A stretch of DNA of 64,000 nt from Bacilli bacterium (GTDB lineage Bacteria > Bacillota_I > Bacilli_A > RFN20 > CAG-826), in NCBI GenBank assembly GCA_045597865.1, contig JAZLKX010000028.1, positions 32,001 through 96,000 on the forward strand. Direction: 5' to 3'. Position 1 is the stretch's first letter. Each line of letters starts with the position of its first letter. The translations under genes were made by a program, and so were the position numbers. Positions 21,736 to 39,896 of this stretch are shown here, in pieces. The notes beneath the pieces were generated by a model that worked only from the letters and a program-made list of their open reading frames with translations, ran no database searches and was not told the origin of the DNA.

Positions 21736-21774
21736 AGTGCAGTTATTTTAACACATAGACATACAAACGCAAAT

Positions 21775-21808
21775 AAAAAAGCGGAGCTACGAAGTAACCC
21801 CGCTAATT
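21775..21808 (-). terminator. Intrinsic terminator ending the 14-gene Mo-hydroxylase operon
   Basis: AGCGGGGTTAC-TTC-GTAGCTCCGCT followed by U-tract on minus strand. Confidence 0.8.
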
Positions 21809-21822
21809 TATATTTAGAGCAA

Positions 21823-22833
21823 TTAACGTCTATCTGATGGTTTCTTGTCGTGAACAAATAATGCCATAACAGCTTTAGCTGTGTGGATTCTGTTCTCAGC
21901 TTCTTGATAGACAACTGATTGTGGTCCATCAATAACTTCATCAACAACTTCGTTAACACGGTCTGCTGGAAGTGCATGCATGTAACGGCAGGTTGGTTTT
22001 GCAAGAGCCATTTTGTCTGGTGTACATTTCCATGCTTTTAAGGCAAGAAGTGCATCATCGACGACTGTGGTTGATTGGTTGGTGACCCATGAACCCCAGT
22101 TCTTTGGGAAGACAACATCAGCATCTTTATAAGCTGCATCCATGTCGTGAGTAATAGTGAGAGATCCACCATTTTCAGCGGCATTTTTGCGGGCTTTTTC
22201 GATAACCCAGTCTGGTAAATCATATCCTTCTGGGTATGCTAATGTGACATCAATTCCGTATCTTGGGAAGAGTAAAACTTGTGAAACTGGAACTGAAATT
22301 GGTTTCTTGTGTGTTGTGGCCATTGCCCAAATAACAGAGACCTTTAAGTTCTTAGTTTTGCCAAATTCATCTTCGATTGTCATTAAGTCTGCTAATGCTT
22401 GCATTGGGTGATATAAATCACATTGTAAGTTAATGATAGGAACTGTTGACCATTTGGCCATTTCACGGATGTATTTGTTTCCGAGTCCCCAGTTACAATA
22501 TCTACAAGCAATCATGTGACCGAATGAAGAAAGAATAACTGCAGTATCTTTTGCTGATTCACCATGAGCAATTTGCATCATTGATGTATCAAGGAATGTG
22601 GCGTGGCCACCTAATTGTGCCATACCTGATTCAAATGAGTTTCTTGTACGTGTTGATTGTTCAAAGAACATCAAGAAACCTGTTTTGCCCTCTAAGAAAG
22701 GCATTGGTTCGTTAGCATAGAAAGCATCCTTCATTTCATGGGATACTTTGAGCATGTAGTCGATTTCTTCCTTAGTAAAATCTTCTAAGGTAATAAGATG
22801 ACGACCTGCGAATCTTGGTTCGATTTTTTCCAT
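21823..22833 (-). CDS. YgeW-like (knotted-type) carbamoyltransferase
   Basis: STRTR, NLQCDLYHPMQ, W-A..KPISVP, FPKNW, HALPADR; lacks the OTCase GDGxNN and SMG motifs. Confidence 0.8.
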   Translation of the reverse strand: MEKIEPRFAGRHLITLEDFTKEEIDYMLKVSHEMKDAFYANEPMPFLEGKTGFLMFFEQSTRTRNSFESGMAQLGGHATFLDTSMMQIAHGESAKDTAVILSSFGHMIACRYCNWGLGNKYIREMAKWSTVPIINLQCDLYHPMQALADLMTIEDEFGKTKNLKVSVIWAMATTHKKPISVPVSQVLLFPRYGIDVTLAYPEGYDLPDWVIEKARKNAAENGGSLTITHDMDAAYKDADVVFPKNWGSWVTNQSTTVVDDALLALKAWKCTPDKMALAKPTCRYMHALPADRVNEVVDEVIDGPQSVVYQEAENRIHTAKAVMALFVHDKKPSDRR

Positions 22834-22844
22834 TTTCTATACTC

Positions 22845-24065
22845 CTATTTTTGTTTTGCTAAATTCTCGAGGTAAAGTCCTGGAATTGTAGCGTATAAAG
22901 CTGCACAAATGACAAGATCTTGTTTACGTGTCTTTTCATTTGGTGCGTGAGCTTCTTTTTCATCACCTGGGCCGAAGCCTAAGCAAGGAATTCCAAAACG
23001 TCCACAGATTGAGACGCCATTGGTTGAGAATGTCCACTTATCAATAACTGGAGCTTTTCCAAAGAGTCCTTCGTAACCTTGTTTTAAGGATTGAACGTAG
23101 ATTGATTCCTCTGGAATAACCCAAGTTGGGAAGTAACATTCTTGTTTATAAACTAATCCAGTGTAGGCTGGACGTTCATAATCATACATTGTGACTTCTG
23201 CTTTAGCAGCTTTAACTGCTGGTAAGTTTTCGATTTCGGCAATTGATGTCTTATCGTTTTCACCAACTGTTAAACGTCTATCAAGTGAGATCCAGCAACC
23301 ATCAGCAACTGCACAGCGGCTTGGTGATTTGTGGAAAATTTGGGAAATAGTAACAGTACCTTTTCCTAAGAATGGATCATAGGCAAGACCTGTTTCGTTA
23401 AGTTCCTTAACTTGATTAATAATGTCTGCCATTTTGTAAATAGCATTATCGCCACGTTCTGGTGCAGAACCATGGCAGGAAATACCACGGACGTTGACTT
23501 TGATTTCCATACGTCCACGGTGACCACGATAGATTTGGCAGCTTGTTGGTTCAGTTGAAACAACGAATTCTGGTTTAATCTTATCTTGTTCAATAATGTA
23601 TTTCCAGCAAAGACCATCACAGTCTTCTTCTTGAACAGTACCTGTTACAAGAAGTGTGTAATCATCTTCAAGGCCTAAATCTTTAATGATTTTGCCTGCA
23701 TAGACCATTGAAGCCATACCACCTTCTTGGTCTGAAGTTCCACGTCCACCAATGTAGACATCATCTTCAAAACCTTCATATGGATCGAACTTCCAGTTCT
23801 TAATTTCGCCAATACCGACTGTGTCGATATGTGCGTCCATAGCGATGAGGTGTTTACCATGGCCAATATAGCCCATTACGTTGCCCATTGGGTCGATTTC
23901 GACTTTGTCAAAACCAACTTTGAGCATTTCTTCTTTAATGCGGAGAACGACATCTTTTTCTTCACATGATTCTGATGGAATCTTAACCATGTCACGAAGG
24001 AATTTTGTCATATCAGCCTTATATGATTCGGCTTTCTTGAGGATTTCTTCGAATGAAACTTTCAT
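22845..24065 (-). CDS. ygeY: YgeY-family M20 amidohydrolase (ureido/carbamoylase)
   Basis: [56 protein letters not shown]. Confidence 0.92.
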
Positions 24066-25435
24066 TATTTGATTTCCTTTCCACGCATTTCTTTAATCTT
24101 CTTATCGTATTCGAAGACTTTGTTATATTCTGCTTCCCAGAATTCTGGTTTTCTCATGGCATCAAGATATTCTTGTTTGTAGCCGAATTTTAACCAGTCT
24201 GATTCTTTTTGTTTGAAGAGTTTTTCTTTAGCTTCTGCTCCACGTGTATCTAAGATATAGGAACCATCAGCGCCCATAAAGACGTCGTTGAACCATCTCT
24301 CTAAAACGTGATCAGTAACTTCGAGTTCTCTATCATGGAGGTTCTTAATGACTGATGGGTATCTATCAAATGAGTCGGTTGCGATTGTAACGACGTTGTC
24401 GTTTGGACCGAGTTTGAGATATTTTGCCATCTTGATAGCTCCAAGAATATTACAAATACCGGAGACACCAAAGAGGTCTACCATTGAATCTGCAACTTTT
24501 GCTGGAACACCATGTGCTTTAAGGATTTCTTTACCTTCATGGATAACTGCTAAACCACGAACACAATCATCATCGATGATTTGGGTGATGAAGTCAGTTG
24601 TTAAGGCGTTGTGAATAAGAGTAATCATCTTATCGCCAATACCTTCAATTCTGTGTTGTCCTAAACCACCATTGGTGAGTGTTGAACATTCATGTGGTTC
24701 AAGAGCTGCAATTTTACATTCTGGGAATGCAACTTTAATTTGGTCGCCTGCTGCTAAAGTACCGGCTGAGCCTGGTGCTGAACAGAAACATGCGATACGA
24801 CCATTACCAATACCTTTAACAGCTTCGATACAGGAATTACCAGTAACGTGTCTGTGGAAACGATAGTTTGGTAAAAGCTCAAATTGAGCTAAAGTTCTAT
24901 TCATTGGGTTCTTCTTAAGTTCGTATGTTCTTTCAAGTGTAAGAATAACGTCTGATTCTGAACCTGGTGTCAAATCAAGTTTTGCACCGTATTTTGAAAT
25001 ACGTTCATATCTTTCTTTTGACATGTTGTCTGGCATAATGACGATTGCATCATATTTCATCAAGTTTGTGATGTAAGAAACGCCAATACCAAAGTTGCCT
25101 GTTGAAGGGCCGAGAATTGTGTGTTTTCCTGGGATAATTTCGCCATCAACACATCCTTCCATAAGTGTTGAATAAGCTGGACCAACTTTGTGTGATCCAG
25201 ATGGAAAATACTTACCAAGTAAGACAACGATATTTGCGTCTACACCTGTAAGTTCCTTAGGAAGTACAATTTTATTAACTTCGTCTTTATCATTCTTCCA
25301 TGTGATATTGAAGAGGTTAATTGGGTCAAGTTCATTTGCCTTGATTGCTTTGAGAGCATCTGCTCTGACTTTAGGATCTTGATGTGATGGATTTAACATT
25401 TCATCATACGTAGGTCCAAATGGAATTTTTGACAT
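24065..25435 (-). CDS. Large fold-type II PLP enzyme (cysteine-synthase-like, function unknown)
   Basis: FPSGSHKVG (PLP Lys), [27 protein letters not shown]. Confidence 0.8.
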
Positions 25436-25436
25436 T

Positions 25437-26681
25437 TTAAATTGCTCCTTTTTGTCTTAAATACTCATCCAATTTGTCCATGTTAGGTTCAAGTGGATCA
25501 GGCATGGATACCGCCTTTTGTCCGTTGACTGGGTCTTTTAGACCATTACCAGTCACGATAGTAGTAACTGTTTCATTAGGTTTGATGATGCCTAATTCAA
25601 CAGCCTTTTTGATGCCTGCAATTGCGGCAACACCGGCAGGTTCACCGAAGATACCTTCGGTTCTTCCGAGTAAACCCATTGCTTTAATGATATCACTATC
25701 AGGCACTGAAACCCAAGCACCATTACTGAATTTAATTGCATTAAGTGCTTTAATAGGGTTTCTTGGGATGCCAACTGCAATAGAGTCAGCAAGAGTGTTT
25801 TCATCTGCTTCTTTGAGTGGTTCACCTGTTTCACTTGAAATAACAAATGGACAACATCCAGTAGATTGAACACCAAAAATTTTTGGAATTCGTTTGATTA
25901 AACCTAACTTATGGAATTCCATAAATCCTTTGTATACGCCACCAACTGTGCATCCGTCACCAACAGATACAGCTACCCAATCAGTAGGTTCCCAGTTAAG
26001 TTGTTCGGCAATTTCCATAGAAACTGTCTTTTTACCTTCAACCATGAATGGGTTTATGGCAGCATTACGGTTGTACCAACCGTATTTATCGATAGCAGCT
26101 TTAGAAAGTTGGAATGCGGCTTTATAGTCGCCGTCAACTTTCACTAAAGTAGCACCGTATAAACAAATTTGCGTGGCTTTGCCAATAGGTGCTCTTTTTG
26201 GGACGAAAATAACTGCTTTGAGTCCCATATGAGCTGCTTGACAAGCACAGCTTGATGCGGCGTTTCCTGTAGAAGAACAAGCAATAACTTTTGCTCCAGC
26301 TTCAACAGCCTTTAAGACTGCAACACCAGAAGCTCTATCTTTGCTTGATCCACTTGGATTTAAGCCATCATCTTTTACGTATAGCTTTGCTACACCTAAT
26401 TCTTTCTCTAAATTTCTTGCATGATAGAGTGGAGTCCATCCGACTCTTAACATTTCATCGATGTGATCTTCTTTAATTCCCATGATAGGTGCATAACGCC
26501 ACATTGAGTAATTACGGTTGTTAGAAAAGTATTCTTTGGTAAGTACTTTTTTAAGCTCATCGTAATCATAGATTACGTCAAGGATGCCTTTTTCGCCACA
26601 GTGAGGACAGGTTAAACCTACTTCACCTTCTTTAAATTCGGCACCACAGATCGTACAACGATAACCTTTAATATAACTCAT
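25437..26681 (-). CDS. Threonine-synthase-like PLP enzyme with N-terminal Zn ribbon
   Basis: CxxC...CxxC, GWTPL, NPSGSSKDR, SSTGNAA, EGKKT, TGNGLKD. Confidence 0.85.
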   Translation of the reverse strand: MSYIKGYRCTICGAEFKEGEVGLTCPHCGEKGILDVIYDYDELKKVLTKEYFSNNRNYSMWRYAPIMGIKEDHIDEMLRVGWTPLYHARNLEKELGVAKLYVKDDGLNPSGSSKDRASGVAVLKAVEAGAKVIACSSTGNAASSCACQAAHMGLKAVIFVPKRAPIGKATQICLYGATLVKVDGDYKAAFQLSKAAIDKYGWYNRNAAINPFMVEGKKTVSMEIAEQLNWEPTDWVAVSVGDGCTVGGVYKGFMEFHKLGLIKRIPKIFGVQSTGCCPFVISSETGEPLKEADENTLADSIAVGIPRNPIKALNAIKFSNGAWVSVPDSDIIKAMGLLGRTEGIFGEPAGVAAIAGIKKAVELGIIKPNETVTTIVTGNGLKDPVNGQKAVSMPDPLEPNMDKLDEYLRQKGAI

Positions 26682-27532
26682 TATTTACCTCCTACAACTT
26701 TGTCGATAAATTCTGAAACGATGTTCATTGCAACTTTATGACGGTATTCAGCATTTGAACGTTGGTCATCAATTGGAGTAATGATTTTTCCATACTTCTC
26801 AATGAACTCATTTTTACGAGCTTTTAATTCAGAAACTGATAAGCCAATAATTTCTTTTTCGATGTCATGAGAACGGACTGCTTTAATTGAGACAGAACCG
26901 AAAGATAATGCAAATTTCTCGACGATTTTCCCGCGAATTCCCCAATATCCTGCTACCATGACCTTAGAAATTGAATCGGCTTTTCTTGAGCCAACTTTCC
27001 ACCACATATCACCTAAATAATCAAGTTTTGGGAAGATAAGTTCAGTGATTAATTCATCTGGATGACGATCAATTTTTCTAACGCCAAGAACAAAGTTTTC
27101 GACGTCAACAAGTCTTTCACCATTTACTGACTCAAGTTTAACTTTTGCATCAAGTAAGAAATCAACAACAATTGTGTCACCTGCTGGAGATGCGTTTGCA
27201 AGGTTTCCAGCAAGTGTTGCAAAGTGTCTAATGTTTGCTGATGCAACTTGGCTAACTGCTTTCTTTAATAATGCAGGTGTAAGTTTTGAATTTAAGACTT
27301 CATCAAGAGTTGTGCCAGCTTTGACATGAACTCCTGCTTCGTCTTCATAAATACCTTTTAATTCATCAATGTGTGATGTGTATAAAATGTCTTTATCAAA
27401 CTTAGGTGCTAAACCTGCAGTGTTTTTCTTCATGACCATGAGGTCAGAACCGCCTGCTACTATGTAGCAATCGTGCTTAGAAAGGACTTCTAATGCTTCT
27501 TTTTTAGAAGTTGGAATGTATTTTTCTACCAT
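26681..27532 (-). CDS. Xanthine dehydrogenase family FAD-binding subunit
   Basis: AGGSDL, IRHFATLAGNLANASPAGD, PIDDQRSNAEYR. Confidence 0.92.
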   Translation of the reverse strand: MVEKYIPTSKKEALEVLSKHDCYIVAGGSDLMVMKKNTAGLAPKFDKDILYTSHIDELKGIYEDEAGVHVKAGTTLDEVLNSKLTPALLKKAVSQVASANIRHFATLAGNLANASPAGDTIVVDFLLDAKVKLESVNGERLVDVENFVLGVRKIDRHPDELITELIFPKLDYLGDMWWKVGSRKADSISKVMVAGYWGIRGKIVEKFALSFGSVSIKAVRSHDIEKEIIGLSVSELKARKNEFIEKYGKIITPIDDQRSNAEYRHKVAMNIVSEFIDKVVGGK

Positions 27533-27996
27533 AATCCTGCTCCTTTCTTAGCAGCTTTTAAGACTGCTTCAACGATTGCTTGATAACCTGTACATCTGCA
27601 AAGGTTACCAGACATTTCTTCTCTAACTTGTGCCTCGGTTGGATGAGGATTGTGTTTGAGAAGTGAGTAGGCTGCAATGATCATTCCTGGAGTACAGAAA
27701 CCACATTGTGAGCCACCCATTTCAGCAAATGCTTGTTGTAAAACATCAAATGCTTTTGTTTCTTTTAAACCTTCAATTGTAACGAAGTCATGGCCAATTG
27801 CGTTTGCAACTGGAAGTAAGCATGAGTTAACGGATTTGCCATCCATTAAAACAACACATGCTCCACATGAGCCTTCACCACATCCTTCTTTGGTGCCATT
27901 GAGGTGTAAAACGTCTCTAACAACATCAAGGAATCTCATGGATGGATCGACATCAATTTCAACAGGTTTTCCATTCATATTAAAATTAATTTTCAT
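27526..27996 (-). CDS. Xanthine dehydrogenase family 2x[2Fe-2S] subunit
   Basis: KEGCGEGSCGAC, QCGFCTPG, NLCRCTGY. Confidence 0.95.
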   Translation of the reverse strand: MKINFNMNGKPVEIDVDPSMRFLDVVRDVLHLNGTKEGCGEGSCGACVVLMDGKSVNSCLLPVANAIGHDFVTIEGLKETKAFDVLQQAFAEMGGSQCGFCTPGMIIAAYSLLKHNPHPTEAQVREEMSGNLCRCTGYQAIVEAVLKAAKKGAGLW

Positions 27997-30082
27997 GTTT
28001 CATAACCTCCATAAGATATTCAGGATTTGCAGGGATTTTTGAAATTTTTCGGCCAATTGCGTTCTCAATTGCGAGTGCAACAGCAGGTGCTCCACCAACC
28101 AATGTGAGCTCGCCCATTCCCTTTGCTCCGTTAGCGCCATAGATAAATGGATTATCGATGAATGCTGTTTCCATATGAGGAGCATCTTCAAATGTTGGAA
28201 TGATGTAATCAGATAAGTTTCTGTTTCTCATTCTTCCATCAACACATTTCATTTCTTCTAAGTAGCCATAGCCAAGTCCTTGGAGTAATCCTCCATCAGC
28301 TTGACCTACAGCAATTCTTTCGTCTACAACTCGACCAACGTCATAAGTTGACCAAGTATTTAAGACCGATACTTGATATGTAACTGGATTGAATTCAACT
28401 TCAACTACGTTGACACCCCAAGAATAACCTGGATAAGCATCACCTTGCATTGTATCTTCATCCCAATGGATGTAGCTTGGTCCAACGTAAGGTTCGACGT
28501 ACTCTTGTCTTTCTCCGCTCTTCCAAATTTCTTTTAAGTGTTTTGCACACTTCTCAAATAAGAAGCCGACAATAATTATTGTACGTGATGCAGCTGTTGG
28601 TCCAGAGTCAGGAGTGTGGTCTGTATCAGGTGCTTCAAATGAAACTTGATCTTCTGGGAGACCTAAAGTATTTGAAACAATCTTCTTAAGTGTTGTGCGG
28701 TTACCTTGACCAAAATCAACTGGTGCGGCGTAACAATAAACATGGTCATGTTCATCTTTAACAAGTTTTACTTTGCCGTGAATGATGTCTGACTCACCTG
28801 AACCAGTAAATCCGCAACCATGGAGGAAGATGGACATACCAATGCCTTTATTACAACCTGGTTTTGAATAAGTTTTTAGCTTACGTTTGTAATCTGACAT
28901 CTTCATAGCCTTTTCCATAAGTTCTTTTAGAATGATTGGATCATGGAAATGACCGTTATTTGCAGTTACATCACCTTGCTTTGCAAGATATTTAAATCTA
29001 AGTTCTAGAGGATCAACTCCAAGTTCTTTTGCAACGTGATGAATGAACATTTCCATTGCAAAGATTGTTTGAGGAGAACCGAAACCTCTAAATGCTGCAG
29101 TTGGAGTTGTGTTTGTCATATAGACATCTCCAACAACATCTAAATTTTCAAATACATAAGCATTTGATGAAGCAATTAAAGCACGAGAAAGAACAACACC
29201 AGAGCATCCTTTGTATGCTCCGCCATTTAATCCGACTCTAATCTTTAATCCTAAAATATTGTTGTCTTTATCAACTAATGCTTCATATTCACTAAGTGAA
29301 GGATGGCGTTTTGTTGTGAAAGTAATGTCTTCAGCACGTTCAAAACACATCTTAACTGGTTTATGAAGTGCTAAAGCAGCAACTGCTACTTGTGAGCCAA
29401 TCATTGATGGATAGTGTTCCTTACCACCAAAGGCTCCACCGACTGCTGGTTGGATTACTCTAACTTCGTCATCTTTAAGTCCGCAGGATCTCATAACTGC
29501 ACGCTTAATATAGAAAGGACATTGCATTGAACCTGTGAGTGTGAGTTTATCGTTCTCATCAAAGTAACAAATGATGCCTTGGTTCTCTAAGTAAGCTTGC
29601 TCTTGATAACCTGTTTCGTAAGTATGTTTGATTACCTTAACTGCTTTAGCTTTTGCAGCCTCGTAATCGCCCTTCTTAAATGCCTTGTGAATGTAGCTTT
29701 CAGTTAACTCATAAACAGGGGTTTCTTCTTCATAATCAATTTTGATCTCGGAAGCCAATTTATCCAGGATTTCCTTGTCTTTTCCAACAAAAATACCTAT
29801 GGATTCCCCAATAAAGTTAACTCTTCCAGCTGCAAAGACAGGCCAGTCTGAGAAGATAATATTAACGACGTTTTCGCCCTTAATATCATCAGCACAGAAC
29901 CAGTGATATCCTTCTGGCATTTTAGGAAGTGTTATCTTCTTAATTTTTCCACGAGCCACTGTAGATCTAACAGTCTTCGCGAAAAGCACATCTGGGAAGC
30001 TAATATCATCTGTGAACTTAGCTTCACCACGAACCTTTTCAGGAAAGTCTACCTTTGCTGTGGAAGTTTTAAATTTATCCAT
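27986..30082 (-). CDS. Xanthine dehydrogenase family molybdopterin-binding subunit (XdhA/PucD-like)
   Basis: QAYLE, GGAFGGKE, FRGFGSPQ, GQG, PTAASRT, GAKGMGE. Confidence 0.93.
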   Translation of the reverse strand: MDKFKTSTAKVDFPEKVRGEAKFTDDISFPDVLFAKTVRSTVARGKIKKITLPKMPEGYHWFCADDIKGENVVNIIFSDWPVFAAGRVNFIGESIGIFVGKDKEILDKLASEIKIDYEEETPVYELTESYIHKAFKKGDYEAAKAKAVKVIKHTYETGYQEQAYLENQGIICYFDENDKLTLTGSMQCPFYIKRAVMRSCGLKDDEVRVIQPAVGGAFGGKEHYPSMIGSQVAVAALALHKPVKMCFERAEDITFTTKRHPSLSEYEALVDKDNNILGLKIRVGLNGGAYKGCSGVVLSRALIASSNAYVFENLDVVGDVYMTNTTPTAAFRGFGSPQTIFAMEMFIHHVAKELGVDPLELRFKYLAKQGDVTANNGHFHDPIILKELMEKAMKMSDYKRKLKTYSKPGCNKGIGMSIFLHGCGFTGSGESDIIHGKVKLVKDEHDHVYCYAAPVDFGQGNRTTLKKIVSNTLGLPEDQVSFEAPDTDHTPDSGPTAASRTIIIVGFLFEKCAKHLKEIWKSGERQEYVEPYVGPSYIHWDEDTMQGDAYPGYSWGVNVVEVEFNPVTYQVSVLNTWSTYDVGRVVDERIAVGQADGGLLQGLGYGYLEEMKCVDGRMRNRNLSDYIIPTFEDAPHMETAFIDNPFIYGANGAKGMGELTLVGGAPAVALAIENAIGRKISKIPANPEYLMEVMKHEN

Positions 30083-31179
30083 TATTTAGCCCCCTTGTGA
30101 TAAGTAAGTGCTTTGACTGGACATTTGCTAACACAAAGACCGCATCTGAAACATTTCTCAGAATTGAACTTTGGAGTTCCGTCCATTTCTATTGCGAAAT
30201 AAGGACAGATTCTGGCACATGTGCCACACTTGCTACACTTTGTAGCATCAACTGTTGGAGCTTCGCCCATTTCATAGCGAAGTTCTTGATGTAAACCTGT
30301 CTTTATAACATCTTCGACTGATTTGAATCCATACTTTTCAAGTGTTGCTGGGAGGTCAGCAATAATCTTGGCATAGAGTTCTTTTCCACGGAGCATAGCT
30401 GCAGACAACATTTGAACTGCACTTGCACCTGCGAGTAAGAATTCGATGACATCACTTGCAGAAGCAATACCACCAACACCAATAACGGTTAAGGATGGTT
30501 CTGCTTTCTTAATTGTATAGACTGTTGCTAAAGCAATATTCTTAATGTATGGTCCAGAGGTCCATGCAAATCCTTTAGCGTTTCCATAAATAATCTCTCT
30601 ATTAGCAATATCAATTTTCATTGATGGTCCTAATGAGTTAACTGCAACAACACCATTTGCGCCATTAACTTTAATTGTATGGGCAAATCCTTCTGGATCT
30701 GGCATATGAGCAGATATCTTCATATAGAATGGCTTTTTGGTAAGTCTTCTAATTGTTGCGACTGTTTCGCCTAATTGATTTAAGTCATTTCCGACGTAGT
30801 GAGTTGAAACTTCGAATGCATCTGCGAATTTATCGAGTAAAGGAATTAACACTTCCATATCTTCTTTGGTATAACCAACTGAAATAATAAGAGGCTTACC
30901 AATTGAGTTTTTCTTATAGAAAGGTAAAAATTCATTAATCCATTTTTCTTTGCTGTATTCTGTCCAGAGTTCACAGTTCATAATGTAATCACGATCGCCG
31001 TAAATACATGGGTGTGGAATGTGAGCATCTTTTGTTGAAATAGTTTTTGCAACAATTGCGCCACAACCTGCAACCTTCTCTAACCAGAGCATTTTTTCTG
31101 CATCGCCAACGACTGGTCCAGCAGCTGGCATAAGTGGATTTTCAAGTACTAATCCGTCAAACTTTGTAGATATGTCCAT
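30082..31179 (-). CDS. PreA/dihydroorotate-dehydrogenase-like FMN oxidoreductase with C-terminal 2x[4Fe-4S]
   Basis: ENPLMPAAGP, KTIS, NCEL, NSL, SGP, IGVGGI, GASAVQ; CSKCGTC..CP and CFRCGLC..CP. Confidence 0.85.
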   Translation of the reverse strand: MDISTKFDGLVLENPLMPAAGPVVGDAEKMLWLEKVAGCGAIVAKTISTKDAHIPHPCIYGDRDYIMNCELWTEYSKEKWINEFLPFYKKNSIGKPLIISVGYTKEDMEVLIPLLDKFADAFEVSTHYVGNDLNQLGETVATIRRLTKKPFYMKISAHMPDPEGFAHTIKVNGANGVVAVNSLGPSMKIDIANREIIYGNAKGFAWTSGPYIKNIALATVYTIKKAEPSLTVIGVGGIASASDVIEFLLAGASAVQMLSAAMLRGKELYAKIIADLPATLEKYGFKSVEDVIKTGLHQELRYEMGEAPTVDATKCSKCGTCARICPYFAIEMDGTPKFNSEKCFRCGLCVSKCPVKALTYHKGAK

Positions 31180-31181
31180 TG

Positions 31182-32474
31182 TTATTTTCCTCCTTTAACT
31201 TTGGCCCATAAATTATCAGCATATTGTCTAGCCTCAATAACTTGATTTACTAAGGATTTGCTGGTGATTTTGTAGTTTTTCACGCGTTTTTTACCATAAG
31301 TGTAGACATCGCTTGGTTTGAAATTTGGGAACAATCCAAACACGATGTGACCGAGTGCGTTGGTCTCGTCCATCTTGGTAAATGGAGTGTATTGAACTCT
31401 CATAAAGTCGGCTTCATAACCAGACTTAAATTCACCAAGTTTTACACCTAATCTATCTCCAACATATTTGTAAGAGTTTCTAATCATCTTTTGGATGTCA
31501 CCAACGCCTAATGCAGTTGGAGAGCCTGCTCTTACATGTCCAGAGAACAAAACGTTCATGTATTCACTTGCCATGTTGGAATTTAAACCATCATTTCCAA
31601 CCATGACTGGAATATTGTGATCAATGTAGTTTTTAACATAAGGTAAACCAACTGCATTGTTCATATTTGAGGTTGTGTTAACAACCATATAACATTTATT
31701 TTTGGCAATGATGTCGAGTTCTTCATCTTTAAGATGGACACCATGAACGATAAGTGAATTTGGAATTAAGATTCCTGCTTCATCAAATCTTTCAATAATT
31801 GATTTTCCATATTTAGCATAGCTATCTTCTTCATCCATTTCAGATTCTGAAACGTGAACGTGAACTGGAACACCATTTTGAACTTTTGCGATACTCTTTA
31901 GAGTCTTATCTGAAATTGACATTGAAGCGTGCATTCCAAATAATCCTTCACCTGGATACTTTCTAGCAAAGCTAGAGTTCTCTTTTAAACAAGCTTTTAC
32001 ATCGTAACGGTCAGATGTTTCAAAGCAGAAGATTCCACGCATTTTAAGTGGTCCTACAAATGCTTTGCGGAGTTCTTTAAGTGAACCAAGAATTTCTCCT
32101 GAAGCGTGATGGTCAATTACTGAAGTAACACCATTAAGTAAGAATTCTTCACCTGCACAAATTGCAGAGTAGTAAGTTTCTTTGTTAACAAGTTTAGCAT
32201 CTAGCTTCCACCACATTTGATCTAAGATATCTTGGAAATTCTTTGGATTGAATGGAAGAATTAAACCACGAGCAAAGATTGAATAAATGTGTGAGTGTGC
32301 GCAAACAAATGTTGGCATAAGTAAGTCGCCACCAAAATCTTCGACTTTGTCGTAGCCTTTGTTTTTAAAGTTTTTCATGTCACCTACTTCGACAATCTTG
32401 TCATCATAAACAAGGTAGCCGTTTTCGATGTAGGTTACATAGTCATAAATTCTTGCGTTAATAATAGCGTTCAT
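31182..32474 (-). CDS. ssnA: SsnA-family amidohydrolase
   Basis: AHSHIYSIFARG, ILDQMWWKLD, DHHAS, CFETSDR, GMHAS, HVHVSE, SNMNNAVG. Confidence 0.85.
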   Translation of the reverse strand: MNAIINARIYDYVTYIENGYLVYDDKIVEVGDMKNFKNKGYDKVEDFGGDLLMPTFVCAHSHIYSIFARGLILPFNPKNFQDILDQMWWKLDAKLVNKETYYSAICAGEEFLLNGVTSVIDHHASGEILGSLKELRKAFVGPLKMRGIFCFETSDRYDVKACLKENSSFARKYPGEGLFGMHASMSISDKTLKSIAKVQNGVPVHVHVSESEMDEEDSYAKYGKSIIERFDEAGILIPNSLIVHGVHLKDEELDIIAKNKCYMVVNTTSNMNNAVGLPYVKNYIDHNIPVMVGNDGLNSNMASEYMNVLFSGHVRAGSPTALGVGDIQKMIRNSYKYVGDRLGVKLGEFKSGYEADFMRVQYTPFTKMDETNALGHIVFGLFPNFKPSDVYTYGKKRVKNYKITSKSLVNQVIEARQYADNLWAKVKGGK

Positions 32475-32475
32475 A

Positions 32476-33780
32476 TTATTTCACCCCGCATTTAATTTCT
32501 TTTCCAGTGTGTGGAACAAGTTTTCTATCTCTTAAAACGAATTTACCACGGATGATAACGTGTTGGAACTCACCTGCTCCAAGAATGCCATCATAGATTG
32601 AATAATCGCATGTTCCGTGATTCTCTTTTTCGAAATAATCTGGGATTTCTTTGAAGATTGAAATGTCTGCATCTTTGCCAACAGAAATCTCGCCTTTTGT
32701 AGGGAAATCCTGGAGAATTGCAGTGTTTTTTGACATTTTTTCAATGATTGGATCACCAAATCTTTTATACATAGTTGAGAAGCTGTGTTCGATTCCACCA
32801 ACGCCTAATGGGAAGCCCATAAGGTGTGGATAATCTTTCTCTTTTTTCATAAATGCACAATGGTCGGTGCCAATGCACATTACGTCTGTATAGTATGCTG
32901 TTAAGAGTTGTCTTTCTCTTTCACTTCTTAGAGGAGGAGCAAATGTAAATAGCTTGCCATTCTTCTCTTCTAAGACTGAATTATTGAATACAAAGTATTG
33001 AGGACAAGACTCAACAATGTAGTTTTTGTTTAAGATATCACTAAATTGTTCTTTTAGAGCTTTAAGTGTTTCTCCGCTTGAACAGTGAACCATATAGAAA
33101 TTACCGCCAACTTCTCTAACTAGCTTTGCTAGCTTTAAAGCTTCACTAGTTTCAGAAAGTGATGGACGTGAGACTGGTAAATCTTTGAAAGTATAACTTT
33201 CTCTAAGATCAATCATGTTGTCATTTTCGATATGAGCTTCAATCATTACATCATATTTCTTTGAAAGTTCGAGTAATGTCTTGATATCTTTATCATAGGT
33301 TCTGCGTCCGGTATCAGAATAAGTTGTAAACAACTTAATTGTCTTCATACCGAGCTTTTTGACGGTTTTAACGTATTCTTCAAGGTCGCCGTTTGGAATC
33401 TTTATGCATGCGTGCATATGGTAGTCAACTATGGATTTCTTTGCCAAAGCAATTCTTTCATAGTATGACTTTTCTAATTCCTCGGCATTACTTGTAGGAT
33501 CTAAGAAATCTACAATAGTAGTAACACCGCCATAGGCGGCTGCAACACTACCAGTGTAGAAATCATCGCACGATGTAACACGACCACAATTAAGCTCAAA
33601 GTGAACATGTGGATCAATTAAACCTGGTAGGATTCTTAATCCTTCAGCGTCTAATACATCAAAAGCGTTTTTGATTTCATCTCCGATATAAACGATTTTC
33701 TCGCCTAAAATAGATAAATTGGTTTTAACCCATTTACCTTCTAGGTAGACTAATCCGTTTTTAATCGTTAAATCGTTCAT
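32476..33780 (-). CDS. Dihydropyrimidinase/hydantoinase (HyuA-like cyclic amidohydrolase)
   Basis: PGLIDPHVHF, AAAYGGVTT, carboxylated-Lys strand IKLFTTY, ESCPQY, PPLR, GTDHCAF. Confidence 0.87.
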   Translation of the reverse strand: MNDLTIKNGLVYLEGKWVKTNLSILGEKIVYIGDEIKNAFDVLDAEGLRILPGLIDPHVHFELNCGRVTSCDDFYTGSVAAAYGGVTTIVDFLDPTSNAEELEKSYYERIALAKKSIVDYHMHACIKIPNGDLEEYVKTVKKLGMKTIKLFTTYSDTGRRTYDKDIKTLLELSKKYDVMIEAHIENDNMIDLRESYTFKDLPVSRPSLSETSEALKLAKLVREVGGNFYMVHCSSGETLKALKEQFSDILNKNYIVESCPQYFVFNNSVLEEKNGKLFTFAPPLRSERERQLLTAYYTDVMCIGTDHCAFMKKEKDYPHLMGFPLGVGGIEHSFSTMYKRFGDPIIEKMSKNTAILQDFPTKGEISVGKDADISIFKEIPDYFEKENHGTCDYSIYDGILGAGEFQHVIIRGKFVLRDRKLVPHTGKEIKCGVK

Positions 33781-36095
33781 TATTTCTTTTCCTTCATTGC
33801 CTCAAAGATCTTTTCTGGAGTAATTGGTAAGTGATGAATTCTTACGCCAAAAGCGTTATAAACAGCGTTGCATAAAACTGCTGGTGGAGTATCAATACCA
33901 ATTTCACCAACTGACTTAGCACCGAACGGTCCTGTTGGTTCATAAGAATCAGCAAATTCGGTAACAAGTTCTCCAACTTCTTTACAGGTTGGAATGTGAT
34001 AAGTATCAAATGTATTTGAAAGGAGTTTTCCTTTTTCGTTATAGATAACTGCCTCACTAGAAGCCATACCATAACCTTGAACAATACCACCTTCAACTTG
34101 GCCTTTGGCCAATGCTGGGTTGATTGTTGTGCCACAGTCAGTAACTGTAACGTACTTAATCATCTTATATTCATAAGTTTCGGTATCAAATTCAAATTCT
34201 CCAAATGCTGCCATAAATGGAGGTGGAGAAACATGACCATGATATGATTCTGTAACAGCGATTTGATGTGTATCGTTGTTATAAAGTCTTCCAGTTGATA
34301 AATCAACTAAGGAGATTTCTTTATCTCCAGCTTTGAAGACTTTGCCATCAAATTCAACATCATCTGGTTTAGCTTTAAGTTCAACTGCTGCTTCTTTAAT
34401 GAGTCTTTCTCTCATCTTGCAAGCTGCATTATATGCAGCATTACCAGAAACATAGGTTGTCGATGAAGCGTAAGCACCACAATCGTATGGAGTTAAGTCT
34501 GTATCAGATGAATAGATAATGACTTTGTCCATTGTTGTTTGTAGTGCTTCTGCAACGATTTGAGAAATAACGGTATCAGAACCTTGTCCGATATCGGTTG
34601 CACCGACAGTAACCATGTAAGAGCCACCATCATTAAGTTTTATTGTACAAGAACCCATGTCTAAGAATGGAATTCCTGAACCTTGCATAGCAATGGCACA
34701 GCCAACTGATCTAATCTTGTGGTCTCCAACTTTCTTAACTGGGTATTTCTTATCCCAATCCATAAGTTCTCTACCACGTTTAATACAATATGGAAGCTTG
34801 CAGGATTCCATAATCATTTCTGTACCTTCGGTACCTTCACCCATAATCTTAAAGATTGGTGAAGTTTCTTGCTCTTTCATGGAGTTAATCTCACGAAGTT
34901 TGATTGGATCCATGTGAAGAGCTTCTGCGAGTTCATCTATGATGGACTCGACAGCATAGTTACCTTGAATAGCACCATATCCACGATATGCGCCTGCAGA
35001 TACGTGGTTGGAGTAAACAACTTTACCACCAAATTTAACGGCTTTAACTTTGTTATAAAGTGGTAAAACCTTTGAACCAACAATCATGAAGACTGTTAAG
35101 GCGTGTTCACCATAAGCACCTGTATCAGAAAGTGTTCTACAATCGATTGCGTTAATAACGCCATCTTTGTTAGCACCAACTCTAAGAGAAATTCTCATTG
35201 GGTGTCTTGTGTAGGAACAACCAAAGACTTCTTCACGAGTGTAAACACATTTTGCAGGTCTATTTGTTCTTAAAGTAACAAGGGAAACAAACATTTCTCC
35301 ATGGAAAGCTTGCTTTCCACCAAAGCCACCACCAACTCTTGGTTTAATGACTCTAACTCTATCAACTGGAAGACCTAAGGTCTTGCAGATGATTCTACGC
35401 ATGTGATATGGAGTTTGAGTTGTAGAATAAACAACAAGTCTATTGTGCTCGTCTAAGCGTGCATTACAAGTGTGTGGCTCAATCATAGCGTGGGCTTGTG
35501 CTTGTGAATAGAATGTGTCTTCGACAACAACTTCAGATTTCTTTAATTCTTCTTCAACATTACCAACTTCCATCTCATAGGCTGCTGCAACGTTCTTCTT
35601 TGGTTCAAAACCAATTGGGAACATGTCGTGAATGCCATCTTCTGGGTGAATAACTGATTTGTTTTCGAATGCTTTTTCAAAATCTAAAACTGGTTCTAAA
35701 ACTTCATAATCAACTTTGATTAATTTCATAGCTGCTAGAGCAGTTTCTTCATCAACTGCTGCAACAGCGGCAACTTCATCACCAACATAACGAACGTATT
35801 CATCTAAGATGAACTTGTCGTATGGTGATGGTTCTGGATAACCTTGGCCCGCACGTGTAAATGAAACATGTGGAACGTTATCTTTTGTAAGAATACAGGC
35901 AACACCTGGATACTTTTCAGCTTCGCTGACATCGATAGATTTAATTCTAGCGAATGCATGTGGAGATCTTAAGATCTTAACAATTAAAGCACCTTGTGGA
36001 GCTAAGTCATCGGTGTAAACACCGCGACCTTGCATTAAGCCTTTTCCATCAACGGAAGGAGTTAAGTTGTTTACAACTTTGAAATTCTTTTTCAT
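33780..36095 (-). CDS. Molybdopterin-binding subunit, XdhD-like
   Basis: FTRAGQGYPEPSPYD, GGGFGGKQ, AYRGYGA, DIGQGSDT, GAYASSTTY, GAKSVGE. Confidence 0.92.
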   Translation of the reverse strand: MKKNFKVVNNLTPSVDGKGLMQGRGVYTDDLAPQGALIVKILRSPHAFARIKSIDVSEAEKYPGVACILTKDNVPHVSFTRAGQGYPEPSPYDKFILDEYVRYVGDEVAAVAAVDEETALAAMKLIKVDYEVLEPVLDFEKAFENKSVIHPEDGIHDMFPIGFEPKKNVAAAYEMEVGNVEEELKKSEVVVEDTFYSQAQAHAMIEPHTCNARLDEHNRLVVYSTTQTPYHMRRIICKTLGLPVDRVRVIKPRVGGGFGGKQAFHGEMFVSLVTLRTNRPAKCVYTREEVFGCSYTRHPMRISLRVGANKDGVINAIDCRTLSDTGAYGEHALTVFMIVGSKVLPLYNKVKAVKFGGKVVYSNHVSAGAYRGYGAIQGNYAVESIIDELAEALHMDPIKLREINSMKEQETSPIFKIMGEGTEGTEMIMESCKLPYCIKRGRELMDWDKKYPVKKVGDHKIRSVGCAIAMQGSGIPFLDMGSCTIKLNDGGSYMVTVGATDIGQGSDTVISQIVAEALQTTMDKVIIYSSDTDLTPYDCGAYASSTTYVSGNAAYNAACKMRERLIKEAAVELKAKPDDVEFDGKVFKAGDKEISLVDLSTGRLYNNDTHQIAVTESYHGHVSPPPFMAAFGEFEFDTETYEYKMIKYVTVTDCGTTINPALAKGQVEGGIVQGYGMASSEAVIYNEKGKLLSNTFDTYHIPTCKEVGELVTEFADSYEPTGPFGAKSVGEIGIDTPPAVLCNAVYNAFGVRIHHLPITPEKIFEAMKEKK

Positions 36096-36547
36096 TATTT
36101 CTTACCTCCTAAGAAAGCTTTAATTGCTTTTTGTTGGGATTGATAACCTGTGCATCTGCAGAGGTTTCCAACCATGTAATCTTTGATTTCTTCATCGGTT
36201 GGATGAGGATTTTCTTTCTTGAGTGCGTGCACCATGAGTGCAAATGCTGCATTACAGAATCCACATTGATCTGCGCCTTCTTTTGAGAAGCATTCAGAAA
36301 GTGCTGCTGCTTCATCTTGAATGGATTCAACAGTCATCACTTTGTGACCTTCAACTTTTGCAGTTAAAAGTGAACAGGATAAGACTGGTTTATCATCTAC
36401 TAATACTGTACATGCTCCGCATGAGGAACCATCACAGCCTTTTTTAACGGATTTAACTCCATAATTACGAAGTGTATCTAAAAGATACTCTCCAGGTTTG
36501 ACATTGACTTCAACATCTAAACCATTAAGGTTGAATTTGACTAACAT
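36095..36547 (-). CDS. 2x[2Fe-2S] subunit of XdhD-like enzyme
   Basis: GCDGSSCGAC, QCGFC, NLCRCTGY. Confidence 0.94.
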   Translation of the reverse strand: MLVKFNLNGLDVEVNVKPGEYLLDTLRNYGVKSVKKGCDGSSCGACTVLVDDKPVLSCSLLTAKVEGHKVMTVESIQDEAAALSECFSKEGADQCGFCNAAFALMVHALKKENPHPTDEEIKDYMVGNLCRCTGYQSQQKAIKAFLGGKK

Positions 36548-37314
36548 TATTTAGATACCTCCTCAAGAGCACGTCTTACGTATGTGAGTGCGAGTTGTTT
36601 ACGATAAGCACTCTTGGTGGCAATGCTATCTCCGAACTTAAGTTCTTCAACTGCAAGTTCGGCAGCTTTAGCAAAATCTTTGCCACCCTCATTTAAGTAT
36701 TTCATTGAATTTTCGCAAAGTGCTGCAACTAAAGGACGTGAACCTACAACGACTTTGTATTCTTTGCCTTTTACGACTGCAACATTAAGGATTGGATAAT
36801 CTAAAGCTGTGATTTCTACCTTCTTAAAATAGGCTTTGTTTTTATCCTTGAAAATACGGATATTTGTTAAAATTCCATCGTAAAACCCAGGTTTTTTGAC
36901 ATATTCATCAAGTGTAATGACTGCTTCAGGATAAAAGACAAGTTCAACATGATGAGCAAGTAAAACTGTAATGATATCAGAGAATCCATACTTGCCATAA
37001 ACTGAACCACCAACAGTTGCGATTTCTCTAAATGCTGGGCCCATAATAGCTTTGGTTGCCTCTCTAATAACTTCTGGTACGAGTGGAGATTTTTCAAGTT
37101 CTCTTTGGGAAACCATTGCACCGACTTCAACATAATCTTTTTTATCTTCAATCTTGTCTAAACCAAGAAGTGAGAGATCGATTAATGTGTCGACATCTGC
37201 GTTTCCTTTCTTTAACCAAAGACCACCTGCAACAATTTTATTACGAGGAGACTCTTTGACTAACTTGTAAGCTTCTTCTAAAGAAGATGCTCTTAGGAAA
37301 GATTTTGCTTTCAT
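36547..37314 (-). CDS. FAD-binding subunit, YgfM-like
   Basis: AGGLWL, IGAM-like VGAMV, FREIATVGGS, FSD, SAYRKQLA. Confidence 0.88.
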   Translation of the reverse strand: MKAKSFLRASSLEEAYKLVKESPRNKIVAGGLWLKKGNADVDTLIDLSLLGLDKIEDKKDYVEVGAMVSQRELEKSPLVPEVIREATKAIMGPAFREIATVGGSVYGKYGFSDIITVLLAHHVELVFYPEAVITLDEYVKKPGFYDGILTNIRIFKDKNKAYFKKVEITALDYPILNVAVVKGKEYKVVVGSRPLVAALCENSMKYLNEGGKDFAKAAELAVEELKFGDSIATKSAYRKQLALTYVRRALEEVSK

Positions 37315-37880
37315 AAAGTAAGTTCCTTTCTTTGTAATTCAATGAATTTGTTGTAATCTTCAATTGTATCAATGTCAAAATTGATAAATGGATCATCTAC
37401 TGGAATTATTTCCACCACATCATTATGTTTAGAAATAAAATCACAGAGCTTAGAATCTAAAGATTCTTCACACAATAATTCAACATATTTCTTTGAAATA
37501 TAAACAGGATGTCCTGTTTCTCCTTCATAAGAAGGAATACGGATATCCTTGTTTCCGTGAAGCAAAGCTTCAATTGTTGAATTATTCACATTTGTGATGT
37601 CACCTGGGAGTATGAGCACATCACTCTTGCTTGCGCGTGCGCCAGCAAGCACCGATGTAAACATGCCTAAAGAAAAATCCTTGTTATAAATAACCTTAAC
37701 ATCAGACAAATGAGGAACGAGTTCATCATTATATCTTCCGGTTACAACAAGGATTTCATCAACGTAATTTCTTAAAGAGTCAATTGTATGACGAATAAGA
37801 GGTTTACGATCTACCTCCAGGAGGAGCTTATTAACTTTGGCTCGGGATGAACATCCTCCCGCAAGGACAATTCCAACCAT
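37311..37880 (-). CDS. mocA: Molybdenum cofactor cytidylyltransferase (MocA/YgfJ family)
   Basis: IVLAGGCSSR..NKLL, GMFTS, PGD, GHPV, DIDTIEDY; first gene of a Mo-hydroxylase operon. Confidence 0.85.
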   Translation of the reverse strand: MVGIVLAGGCSSRAKVNKLLLEVDRKPLIRHTIDSLRNYVDEILVVTGRYNDELVPHLSDVKVIYNKDFSLGMFTSVLAGARASKSDVLILPGDITNVNNSTIEALLHGNKDIRIPSYEGETGHPVYISKKYVELLCEESLDSKLCDFISKHNDVVEIIPVDDPFINFDIDTIEDYNKFIELQRKELTL

Positions 37881-37906
37881 TAAGTTTCTCCTATGTGTGT
37901 GCCTAT

Positions 37907-37935
37907 ATTTTACACGTATATGTAAGAGGTTTCAA
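37907..37935 (-). promoter_or_regulatory. sigma-A promoter of the 14-gene operon
   Basis: TTGAAA-17 nt-TAAAAT, then SD AGGAG; TTACA-N6-TGTAA repeat overlaps spacer and -10. Confidence 0.75.
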
Positions 37936-37951
37936 TAATTTGTTATATAAC

Positions 37952-37986
37952 AAAAAAAGGATTACCGATTTGGCAATCCTTGTTTT
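37952..37986 (-). terminator. Intrinsic terminator
   Basis: AAGGATTGCC-AAATC-GGTAATCCTT plus U-tract on minus strand. Confidence 0.8.
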
Positions 37987-38003
37987 GATTAAATTTTAAA
38001 GAA

Positions 38004-38687: not shown

Positions 38688-38872
38688 AAATTTCACCTCG
38701 CTAATAATGAGTTTATCAAAATATTTTTGCTTCAAAAAGTAAAAATTTTTGCCTCGCGCGCGCTCAGTTTAACCTTGAAACTGCGGGCGCATAAAAATTA
38801 TTTTTAATTTAATAAGAGAGTGCTATAATTTGTCTCGTCGATTTTAGCAGCAAAAAGTTGGTATAAATTTTT

Positions 38873-39424: not shown

Positions 39425-39435
39425 TCACTGCTTTT
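39410..39435. terminator. Bidirectional terminator embedded in convergent gene ends
   Basis: Perfect AAAAGCAGTGA-ATAA-TCACTGCTTTT spanning both stop codons. Confidence 0.7.
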
Positions 39436-39886: not shown

Positions 39887-39896
39887 TCTTTTTACC

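Follow-up and report, generated by a model that had tools for sequence, protein, structure and literature searches.

We describe here a group of fourteen genes on a 64,000-nucleotide (nt) stretch of DNA, referred to below as the window, from an uncultured Bacilli bacterium of the gut, of the RFN20 lineage (assembly GCA_045597865.1, contig JAZLKX010000028.1, positions 32,001 to 96,000). These genes appear to encode a variant of the anaerobic pathway for the reductive degradation of urate, in which several of the enzymes known from Escherichia coli are missing and other protein families are found in their place. The window (C28:32001-96000 in our labels) comes from a draft genome of 1.74 Mb in 58 contigs, G000, which is 96.9% complete with 5.4% contamination; genomes of the same genus are 1.1-1.2 Mb in size, and the absences reported below are unaffected by this difference. 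Where labels are needed we refer to loci as L0xx or L1xx, to genomes as Gxxx, to contigs of G000 as C21 and C28, and to families as f5, f10 and f25.

Operon structure

The fourteen genes lie on the minus strand and form one operon (37880..21823 in the open reading frame (ORF) listing), and by arithmetic on the ORF coordinates no junction overlaps or gapes by more than 11 nt (Table 1). The initial annotation of this DNA had described fourteen abutting or overlapping genes with one promoter and one terminator, and this is confirmed by the ORF coordinates together with the flanking signals. Gene families assigned using Pfam and NCBIfam scans follow the order listed in that annotation and agree with the families named there except at the end of the operon, where the gene called ygeW-like proves closer to ornithine carbamoyltransferase (OTC).

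The promoter-like site is found directly 3' of the terminator (37981..37957) that ends the preceding gene, and AGGAGA precedes the mocA ATG at 37880. It should be noted that across the whole region promoter-like sites numbered 40 versus 58.1 expected from shuffled sequences, and terminator-like sites 14 versus 13.1, and because these counts are not above those of the shuffles the case for the operon boundaries is made by the position of the two strongest terminators. An Rfam scan of 21000-40000 found no riboswitch or leader element in what is a leader of only about 27 nt, and a match to osmY was rejected as chance (25.3 bits for a threshold of 46.9). Contigs from RNA libraries of four studies of animal gut metatranscriptomes covered 28-30 of the 30 bins of 21500-38200 at 90-99% identity, which indicates presence only, as such contigs carry no strand or transcript ends and DNA carry-over is possible.

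Table 1. Coordinates and main assignments of the operon genes, flanking signals and adjoining membrane protein, in order of transcription.
Feature	Position	Strand	Length (aa)	Assignment
Membrane protein	38004..38735	-	243	Without Pfam or NCBIfam family; directly upstream of the operon; own terminator 37981..37957
Promoter-like site, TTGAAA-17-TAAAAT	37935..37907	-		10/12 matches; about 27 nt 5' of the mocA start codon
MocA-like molybdenum cofactor cytidylyltransferase	37311..37880	-	189	PF12804, 104 bits
FAD subunit 1 (FAD1), YgfM-like	36547..37314	-	255	PF00941
2Fe-2S subunit 1 (FeS1)	36095..36547	-	150	PF01799 and PF00111
Mo subunit 1 (Mo1), XdhD-like	33780..36095	-	771	Candidate urate to 2,8-dioxopurine reductase
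Hydantoinase/dihydropyrimidinase-like amidohydrolase	32476..33780	-	434	Candidate hydantoin-ring hydrolase
SsnA-like amidohydrolase	31182..32474	-	430	NF005540, 333 bits (cut-off 444)
UacX-type reductase	30082..31179	-	365	DHO_dh FMN domain PF01180 and two PF00037 (two 4Fe-4S)
Mo subunit 2 (Mo2), XdhA-like	27986..30082	-	698	Candidate xanthine/hypoxanthine dehydrogenase
2Fe-2S subunit 2 (FeS2)	27526..27996	-	156	PF01799, 113 bits
FAD subunit 2 (FAD2), XdhB-like	26681..27532	-	283	PF00941 and PF03450; best E. coli match XdhB
ThrC-like fold-type II PLP enzyme	25437..26681	-	414	PF00291, 258 bits; N-terminal CxxC...CxxC zinc ribbon
CysK-like fold-type II PLP enzyme	24065..25435	-	456	N- and C-terminal helical extensions
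YgeY, M20 ureido-group hydrolase	22845..24065	-		True ortholog; TIGR03526, 686 bits (cut-off 321.5)
OTC-like carbamoyltransferase	21823..22833	-	336	TIGR00658, 256.7 bits (under the 280.85 cut-off)
Intrinsic terminator-like hairpin	21804..21780	-		11 pairs, 6 GC, T-run; closes the operon 19 nt past the last stop codon
aa, amino acids; FAD, flavin adenine dinucleotide; FMN, flavin mononucleotide; PLP, pyridoxal phosphate.

Enzymes encoded by the operon

The operon encodes two enzymes of the xanthine dehydrogenase (XDH) family, each with separate molybdenum, iron-sulphur and FAD subunits, and a tblastn search of the host genome found no others. For Mo1 the best E. coli match is XdhD (36% identity, 487 bits), ahead of XdhA (33%, 377 bits), and its score against TIGR03313 is 568 bits, below the 1102 cut-off of this model; its closest solved relative is the alpha subunit of 4-hydroxybenzoyl-CoA reductase, a reductive dehydroxylase (326 bits), and the best E. 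coli match of FAD1 is YgfM (30%). Mo2 matches E. coli XdhA (25% identity, 210 bits) ahead of XdhD (151 bits), and is closest among solved structures to bovine xanthine oxidase (220 bits). The E. coli and solved-structure matches back the XdhD-like and XdhA-like labels given to these subunits earlier, and fit a role for Mo1 as a putative urate dehydroxylase and for Mo2 as a putative xanthine dehydrogenase. The MocA-like protein scores 122 bits with TIGR03310, under the 186 cut-off, and is 28% identical to E. coli MocA.

The remaining enzymes of the first half of the operon are also distant from their named families. The hydantoinase-like protein scores 214 bits against the D-hydantoinase model TIGR02033 (cut-off 393) and is 27% identical to E. 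coli HyuA, and the SsnA-like protein scores 308 bits against a second SsnA model (cut-off 455.5) and is 31% identical to E. coli SsnA. The reductase has no nicotinamide adenine dinucleotide (NAD) or FAD domain and shares 27% identity with the true PreA of the host genome; its likeness to Clostridioides difficile UacX is one of published architecture.

With 72% identity to its E. coli counterpart, YgeY is the only close ortholog of an E. coli pathway enzyme in the operon. The last gene is predicted to encode an OTC-like enzyme rather than a knotted YgeW: it scores 256 bits with NF001986 (cut-off 306), and so misses the curated OTC threshold, and 182.8 to 193 bits with the YgeW models, which have cut-offs of 500 and 453 (35.5% identity to E. 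coli YgeW). No second carbamoyltransferase was found in the host genome by tblastn. A true carbamate kinase is encoded on contig C21 (389.5 bits for a cut-off of 358; 52% identity to YqeA), and since neither an arginine deiminase nor a second carbamoyltransferase was found in the host genome, this kinase has no visible source of carbamoyl phosphate except the operon. The C21 gene group (L010) is made up of PreT/PreA, which is a true pair (dihydropyrimidine dehydrogenase), gdhA, serC, a serA-like gene, the carbamate kinase, a dCMP-deaminase-like gene and EcfA1A2T.

Between the XDH-family subunits and YgeY are two PLP enzymes. The ThrC-like protein scores 272.4 bits against NF006050 (below the 303 cut-off) and 212.7 bits against TIGR00260 (above the 167.1 cut-off), and its zinc-ribbon cysteines C9, C12, C25 and C28 and PLP lysine K114 are invariant in 21 sequences. 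The CysK-like protein misses the cysteine synthase thresholds (TIGR01139, 130 bits for a cut-off of 351; TIGR01136, 129 bits for 344) and has an invariant PLP lysine and STGN loop; the AlphaFold2 (AF2) model has a predicted local distance difference test (pLDDT) score of 89.5, and its nearest folds are CysK and beta-cyanoalanine synthase at 22-30% identity, with O-ureido-L-serine synthase a further solved fold nearby. Against the YgeX model, which has a cut-off of 276, the two members of the pair reach 47.8 and 24 bits. A complex prediction for the two proteins using alignments A1 and A2 gave a score of 0.00 (mark 0.32), which is no evidence either way. Database names for the pair are generic ('pyridoxal-phosphate dependent enzyme', 'cysteine synthase' and 'threonine synthase'), and a Protein Atlas look-up returned just 'putative cysteine synthase' and 'hypothetical protein'.

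Searches of the whole host genome found neither YgfK nor YgeX. The best match to the YgfK model is the GltD-like PreT (169 bits for a cut-off of 835) and the best to YgeX reaches 47.8 bits for a cut-off of 276, and there is no match to SelD, YqeB or YqeC in this genome. SelD and YqeB are also missing from all 26 Bacilli genomes with a close CysK-like protein, the host included, while the YgeX-type genomes G317 and G324 carry both. Judged by this gene content, the operon probably encodes a selenium-independent variant of the pathway.

Conservation and co-occurrence with YgeX

A search with the CysK-like protein found more than 545 genome stretches, and the conservation counts given here refer to the best 80 of these. 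The CysK-like protein is 73-93% identical in all 80 loci, which by record title are from rumen and gut 'Bacilli' metagenome-assembled genomes, Izemoplasmatales, Acholeplasmataceae and two complete Mycoplasmatota genomes, and it is the most conserved protein of the cluster with a median identity of 76%, where the other proteins have medians of 44-73%. Of these loci 75 carry the ThrC-like gene and the remaining five stop at a contig edge on that side, and all ten genes from the hydantoinase to the OTC-like gene are present in 43. We had considered that the first XDH block might be specific to the rumen clade and rejected this, as the upstream mocA-FAD1-FeS1-Mo1 block is present in all ten relatives for which upstream DNA was fetched.

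Purine genes accompany the PLP pair in several of these clusters. An adenine deaminase is encoded inside the cluster with the same pair in a complete Mycoplasmatota genome (L054), and in L068 the pair is found amid true YgeW, HyuA, SsnA, ArcC, adenine deaminase and xanthine phosphoribosyltransferase (XPRT) genes. In L093, from an f25 genome without YgeX, a canonical YgeW-YgfK-SsnA-MocA-YgeY ... HyuA-SeXDH-GuaD cluster holds a ThrC-like gene and a gene for a 496-aa CysK-like protein (38% identical) in the place where YgeX would be expected.

We compared the distribution of the CysK-like protein (E <= 1e-80) with that of YgeY and YgeX in 399 scored Bacilli genomes (two more were unscored). YgeY was found in 32 of these genomes and the CysK-like protein in 27, every one among the 32; 26 of the YgeY-bearing genomes carry a CysK-like protein at 68% identity or more and none of these 26 has YgeX. 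YgeX was found in three others (G250, G317 and G324), and in the last three, all of family f25, both YgeX and a close CysK-like protein are missing. For a second phylum, in which 75 of 301 genomes have YgeY, the same cross-tabulation divided the CysK-like proteins into subtype A (at least 57% identity; 30 genomes, one with YgeX), subtype B (44-48%; 8 genomes, none with YgeX) and subtype C (36-43% and about 495 aa; 22 genomes, 10 with YgeX), leaving 15 genomes with no CysK-like protein, of which 11 have YgeX. Co-occurrence with YgeX, a check suggested in the initial annotation, is nil in the 26 Bacilli genomes and limited to one of the 38 second-phylum genomes with a CysK-like protein of at least 44% identity, but is frequent for subtype C. 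In the single genome with both subtype A and YgeX (L091), YgeX is found in a separate cluster with a YgeY-like protein and a hydantoinase.

Two genes 3' of the operon should also be mentioned here. These encode an sdaA-type Fe-S L-serine dehydratase, whose beta part is shortened (20473-21735, minus strand) and, also behind a strong terminator, cysS (19129-20460, minus strand), and both were rejected as operon members as the terminator at 21804..21780 intervenes. They follow the operon in 11 of the 80 loci, exclusively in close relatives, and the neighbourhood may be relevant if the PLP pair makes serine.

Proposed pathway and alternative explanations

The route described by Li et al. (2025; PMC12507026) begins with the conversion of urate to 2,8-dioxopurine by XdhD-YgfM and dearomatisation by YgfK, and continues with ring opening by SsnA and HyuA, the action of YgeY and YgeW, and finally YgeX. 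The same source describes C. difficile UacX as a PydA-like PF01180 substitute for YgfK, which was assayed with reduced methylviologen, and a hydrolase, UacY, found in place of YgeW and YqeA. Liu et al. (bioRxiv 10.1101/2025.04.24.650524) report that ATP is made via YgeW and carbamate kinase and that SelD and YqeBC are present in all of the cluster-bearing strains of their gut library. Among the points listed as open in a commentary by Percudani (PMC12990295) are the order in which the ureido groups are cleaved and the stereochemistry, for which the R (= D) configuration was proposed.

The gene content, operon structure, conservation and patterns of presence and absence that we observe lead us to infer a corresponding series of reactions, in which the roles of the PLP enzymes are the most conjectural. 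Mo2/FeS2/FAD2, the XdhABC-like enzyme, would oxidise hypoxanthine and xanthine to urate, from which Mo1/FeS1/FAD1, a split XdhD-YgfM homolog presumably matured by MocA, would strip the 6-oxo group to give 2,8-dioxopurine. The UacX-like flavoenzyme, probably of a ferredoxin type, would then dearomatise this compound, and the SsnA-like and hydantoinase-like proteins would open both rings to give 2,3-diureidopropionate. YgeY could hydrolyse one ureido group and the OTC-like enzyme phosphorolyse the other, with the carbamoyl phosphate so produced used to make ATP by the lone carbamate kinase encoded on another contig. The ThrC-like and CysK-like enzymes may jointly dispose of the 2,3-diaminopropionate, probably yielding pyruvate and ammonia; for example, the beta-elimination might be the task of one enzyme, with racemisation or pre-processing of the D-isomer left to its partner.

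We put at about 70% the probability that the operon encodes the reductive urate pathway, also known as that of 2,8-dioxopurine or 'yanthine', in a selenium-independent variant. Several observations weigh against this. With the exception of YgeY, the operon proteins fall under named-family cut-offs and share 25-36% identity with the E. coli enzymes, so that the regiochemistry, order of steps or substrate could differ. No NCS2 nucleobase permease was found in the host genome. Subtype C co-occurs with YgeX in the second phylum, as described above, and in one complete 4.9-Mb genome (L094; G695) a 493-aa subtype C CysK-like protein and a ThrC-like protein are encoded beside YgeX in a cluster which also includes YgfK, a PreA-like protein, SsnA, a xanthine permease, a sigma-54 regulator, YgeY, ArcC (carbamate kinase) and an OTC-like protein 67% identical to that of the window. 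Finally, the host genome has no MoaA (best match 56.8 bits for a cut-off of 284), MoaC or PF00994 domain (MogA/MoeA-type), and having no genes for the synthesis of molybdenum cofactor (Moco) both molybdenum enzymes could work only with cofactor from outside.

The L094 cluster forms part of a wider pattern in which YgfK or UacX, YgeW, the OTC-like enzyme or UacY, YgeX or the PLP pair, and Se-type or three-subunit XDH combine freely across clusters. Subtype C, at least, may act differently from YgeX, and the pair as a replacement for YgeX is not proven. It is conceivable, if rather unlikely, that the route through 2,8-dioxopurine holds while the pair in general catalyses a different or additional step on a C3 amino acid, such as a beta-replacement salvage of diaminopropionate or albizziin to serine or cysteine, a stereo-inversion, or the beta-elimination of urea from 2-amino-3-ureidopropionate; pyruvate would then come, where YgeX is missing, from another enzyme, for example the L-serine dehydratase encoded at 20473-21735. 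Such a role would agree with the presence of YgeX alongside the distant subtype, with the finding that the solved structures nearest in fold to the CysK-like protein are beta-replacement enzymes, with sdaA behind the operon in some loci, and with the degree of conservation of the CysK-like protein, which would be unusual for a simple lyase. It is countered by the near absence of YgeX from genomes with the close subtypes, by the strong terminator which parts sdaA from the operon and a linkage that is absent outside close relatives, and by the fact that both PLP enzymes are always retained (75 of 80 loci plus the five contig-edge cases). In genomes without YgeX the diaminopropionate needs a consumer, and the PLP pair is the sole candidate within the cluster.

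The initial annotation had also allowed that the operon might act on a different heterocycle. The families recognised here could have been reused to degrade a pyrimidine, pterin, methylxanthine or nicotinate-type compound. Compatible with this are the family cut-offs missed by nine out of ten enzyme types, the identity of less than 32% that the two ring-opening hydrolases show to SsnA and HyuA, and the lack of a detectable urate or xanthine permease in the host genome. We regard it nonetheless as very improbable, given the level of identity between YgeY and its E. coli ortholog, the best matches of Mo1 and FAD1 to XdhD and YgfM, the purine deaminases, XPRT and xanthine permeases in clusters with the same PLP pair, and the separate true PreT/PreA that the host genome has for pyrimidines.

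A urate pathway variant therefore remains our preferred reading, and what was first proposed for this locus has held up in part. The reductase and PLP positions are indeed filled by different families, UacX-like in one case and ThrC-like/CysK-like in the other, and orthologs of ygfK and ygeX elsewhere in the genome, which could have supplied these steps, were searched for and none was found. Of the components listed as absent, YgfK, YgeX and NCS2 permeases are missing from both operon and genome, whereas carbamate kinase is missing from the operon only. The view of the operon as a candidate undescribed system has to be given up for that of a variant of a known pathway, and the reductase substitution has already been published (UacX; PMC12507026).

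No description of the zinc-ribbon ThrC-like and 456-aa CysK-like proteins as a pair replacing YgeX, or of an OTC-like transferase replacing YgeW, was found in the literature, and neither PLP enzyme is mentioned in the accessible parts of Li et al., Liu et al. or the Percudani commentary. We note that the cluster figures of Li et al. (Fig. 1b, Fig. 3g and Extended Data) could show the pair unnamed. In these figures any PF00291 protein is coloured as 'YgeX' and any PF00185 protein as 'YgeW' (PMC12507026), so that both substitutions would be hidden.

Molybdenum cofactor and the adjoining membrane protein

The lack of Moco synthesis genes is not peculiar to the host. Among 33 cluster-bearing genomes MoaC was found in seven and MoaA above cut-off in six (G001, G176, G227, G250, G317 and G324), and PF00994 is absent from all seven other genomes of the host's own family, all six of f5, all three of f10 and G405. 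MoaA, MoaC and PF00994 are all lacking in 18 genomes, including that of the host, and three of these 18 are closed or nearly closed (one in a single contig, one in two contigs and one complete). All 18 encode two XDH-family enzymes plus MocA, and the same searches found the Moco synthesis genes of G227, G250, G317 and G324, which serve as positive controls. This suggests that the 18 genomes may depend on external molybdenum cofactor. There is a precedent for losing Moco synthesis in sequenced Dehalococcoides genomes, which are described as having no such genes in a 2026 paper (PMC13390414). We found no description in the literature of the loss of the selenium trait and Moco synthesis with clusters of this kind, and nothing relevant on Moco scavenging.

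A possible means of uptake is suggested by the membrane protein gene found directly upstream of the operon. In six of the ten relatives' loci fetched the gene order is Mo1, membrane protein, XdhC, NTPase_1 and hydantoinase. The clusters of L103 and L104-L108 include genes for an XdhC-type Moco chaperone and for an NTPase of family PF03266; neither XdhC nor NTPase_1 was found in the host genome by tblastn. Of 33 genomes tested 26 have the membrane-protein family, namely G405 and all but one of the 26 Bacilli genomes in which the variant cluster occurs, or 26 of 27 variant-cluster genomes. In 19 of the 26 the coordinates put the gene on one contig with the CysK-like gene and at most 15 kb from it. 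It was found in none of the six genomes with a canonical cluster, of which four (G227, G250, G317 and G324) have MoaA and MoaC, and the lone variant-cluster genome without it, G001, also has both of these.

The AF2 model of the L104 member of this family, which is 27% identical to the protein of the window, has a pLDDT of 87.1. In a fold search (VIA) of 48,161 chains the top 15 were all energy-coupling factor (ECF) S components or related metal/cobalamin carriers, with Z scores from 11.1 to 7.8 (next chain 6.7) over 147-173 residues at a root-mean-square deviation of 3.5-4.2 and 6-14% identity, and it should be noted in reading these values that helical bundles can reach a Z below about 13 by chance. 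Foldseek comparison of the model with the PDB returned nothing at E <= 0.001, with template modelling (TM) scores of 0.56/0.60 for the S component 5edl. The host genome encodes an EcfA1-EcfA2-EcfT module, which adjoins the carbamate kinase on C21.

Vitamins and cofactors are the usual cargo of ECF transporters, which makes a Moco or pterin importer attractive, and a purine importer is the plain alternative; on the strength of the model we regard the membrane protein as a candidate importer of cofactor (Moco or pterin) or purine. The fuller proposal, that Moco or a late precursor is imported using a dedicated, cluster-encoded ECF-type S component in reduced-genome Bacilli whose pathway would also end in a two-enzyme PLP route detected by no published screen, is possible but we hold it tentatively, as somewhat doubtful. 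If true, this would be the first bacterial uptake system for Moco or a pterin, with its gene sited next to that of the Moco chaperone XdhC. Neither an ECF-type Moco uptake transporter nor this cluster-linked membrane protein was found described in the literature.

Two further genes lie in this part of the window. A second ECF S component is encoded at 38873-39424 on the plus strand (PF07155, 45 bits; below the cut-off of a folate-family model), divergent from the membrane-protein gene, and was rejected as part of the system as it is beside the cluster in just one of ten relatives (L099). Further upstream there is a 1755-aa ORF (39897-45164, minus strand) located upstream of smpB.

Significance and comparison with known systems

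It was not until 2025 that the anaerobic pathway for urate was solved, and it is being applied in surveys and in the engineering of urate-degrading gut bacteria. The variant we describe has none of three survey markers (ygfK, ygeX and ygeW) nor the selenium trait of Liu et al., and is common nonetheless, so that censuses based on such markers may undercount purine degraders in the rumen, gut and sediment and among DNA-foraging Izemoplasmatales. As had been foreseen for this operon, BLAST or hidden Markov model screens keyed to ygfK/ygeX would miss it. For enzymology the two PLP enzymes offer a clearly delimited target, and the gaps in Moco synthesis together with the cluster-linked ECF-like protein provide a testable case for cofactor uptake in bacteria.

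In terms of fold, the membrane protein is predicted to resemble the ECF S components of known structure (FolT, RibU, BioY, ThiT, PanT, BtuM and CbiM) in having about six helices, and differs from known S components in belonging to no recognised sequence family. The enzymes of the operon are best compared with those of the E. coli K-12 locus (xdhABC, ygeW-ygeX-ygeY-hyuA-yqeA and mocA-ygfK-ssnA-ygfM-xdhD), with which they would share a set of reaction types: those of two XDH-family enzymes with MocA, of a dearomatising reductase and two amidohydrolases, of YgeY with a carbamoyltransferase, and of terminal PLP chemistry. The system described here differs from that of E. coli in having no YgfK, YgeX, knotted YgeW, YqeB, YqeC or SelD, and neither a XanQ/UacT-type permease nor a sigma-54 regulator; the counterpart of XdhD is split into three subunits, the genes form one operon, and the carbamate kinase is encoded elsewhere.

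The closest likeness in the reductase step is to C. difficile, where a PF01180 FMN and Fe-S enzyme without an NAD/FAD domain stands in for YgfK, as the UacX-type protein would here, and this implies an electron donor of the ferredoxin type. C. difficile keeps YgeX and employs the hydrolase UacY, and has no carbamoyltransferase or carbamate kinase according to the published description, whereas the operon has kept what would be an OTC-like phosphorolysis and is missing YgeX. The PLP pair shares with YgeX/DpaL (NF006058, TIGR03528) both fold-type II and the same position in the cluster, and differs from it in being two proteins which belong to the ThrC and CysK branches of this fold.

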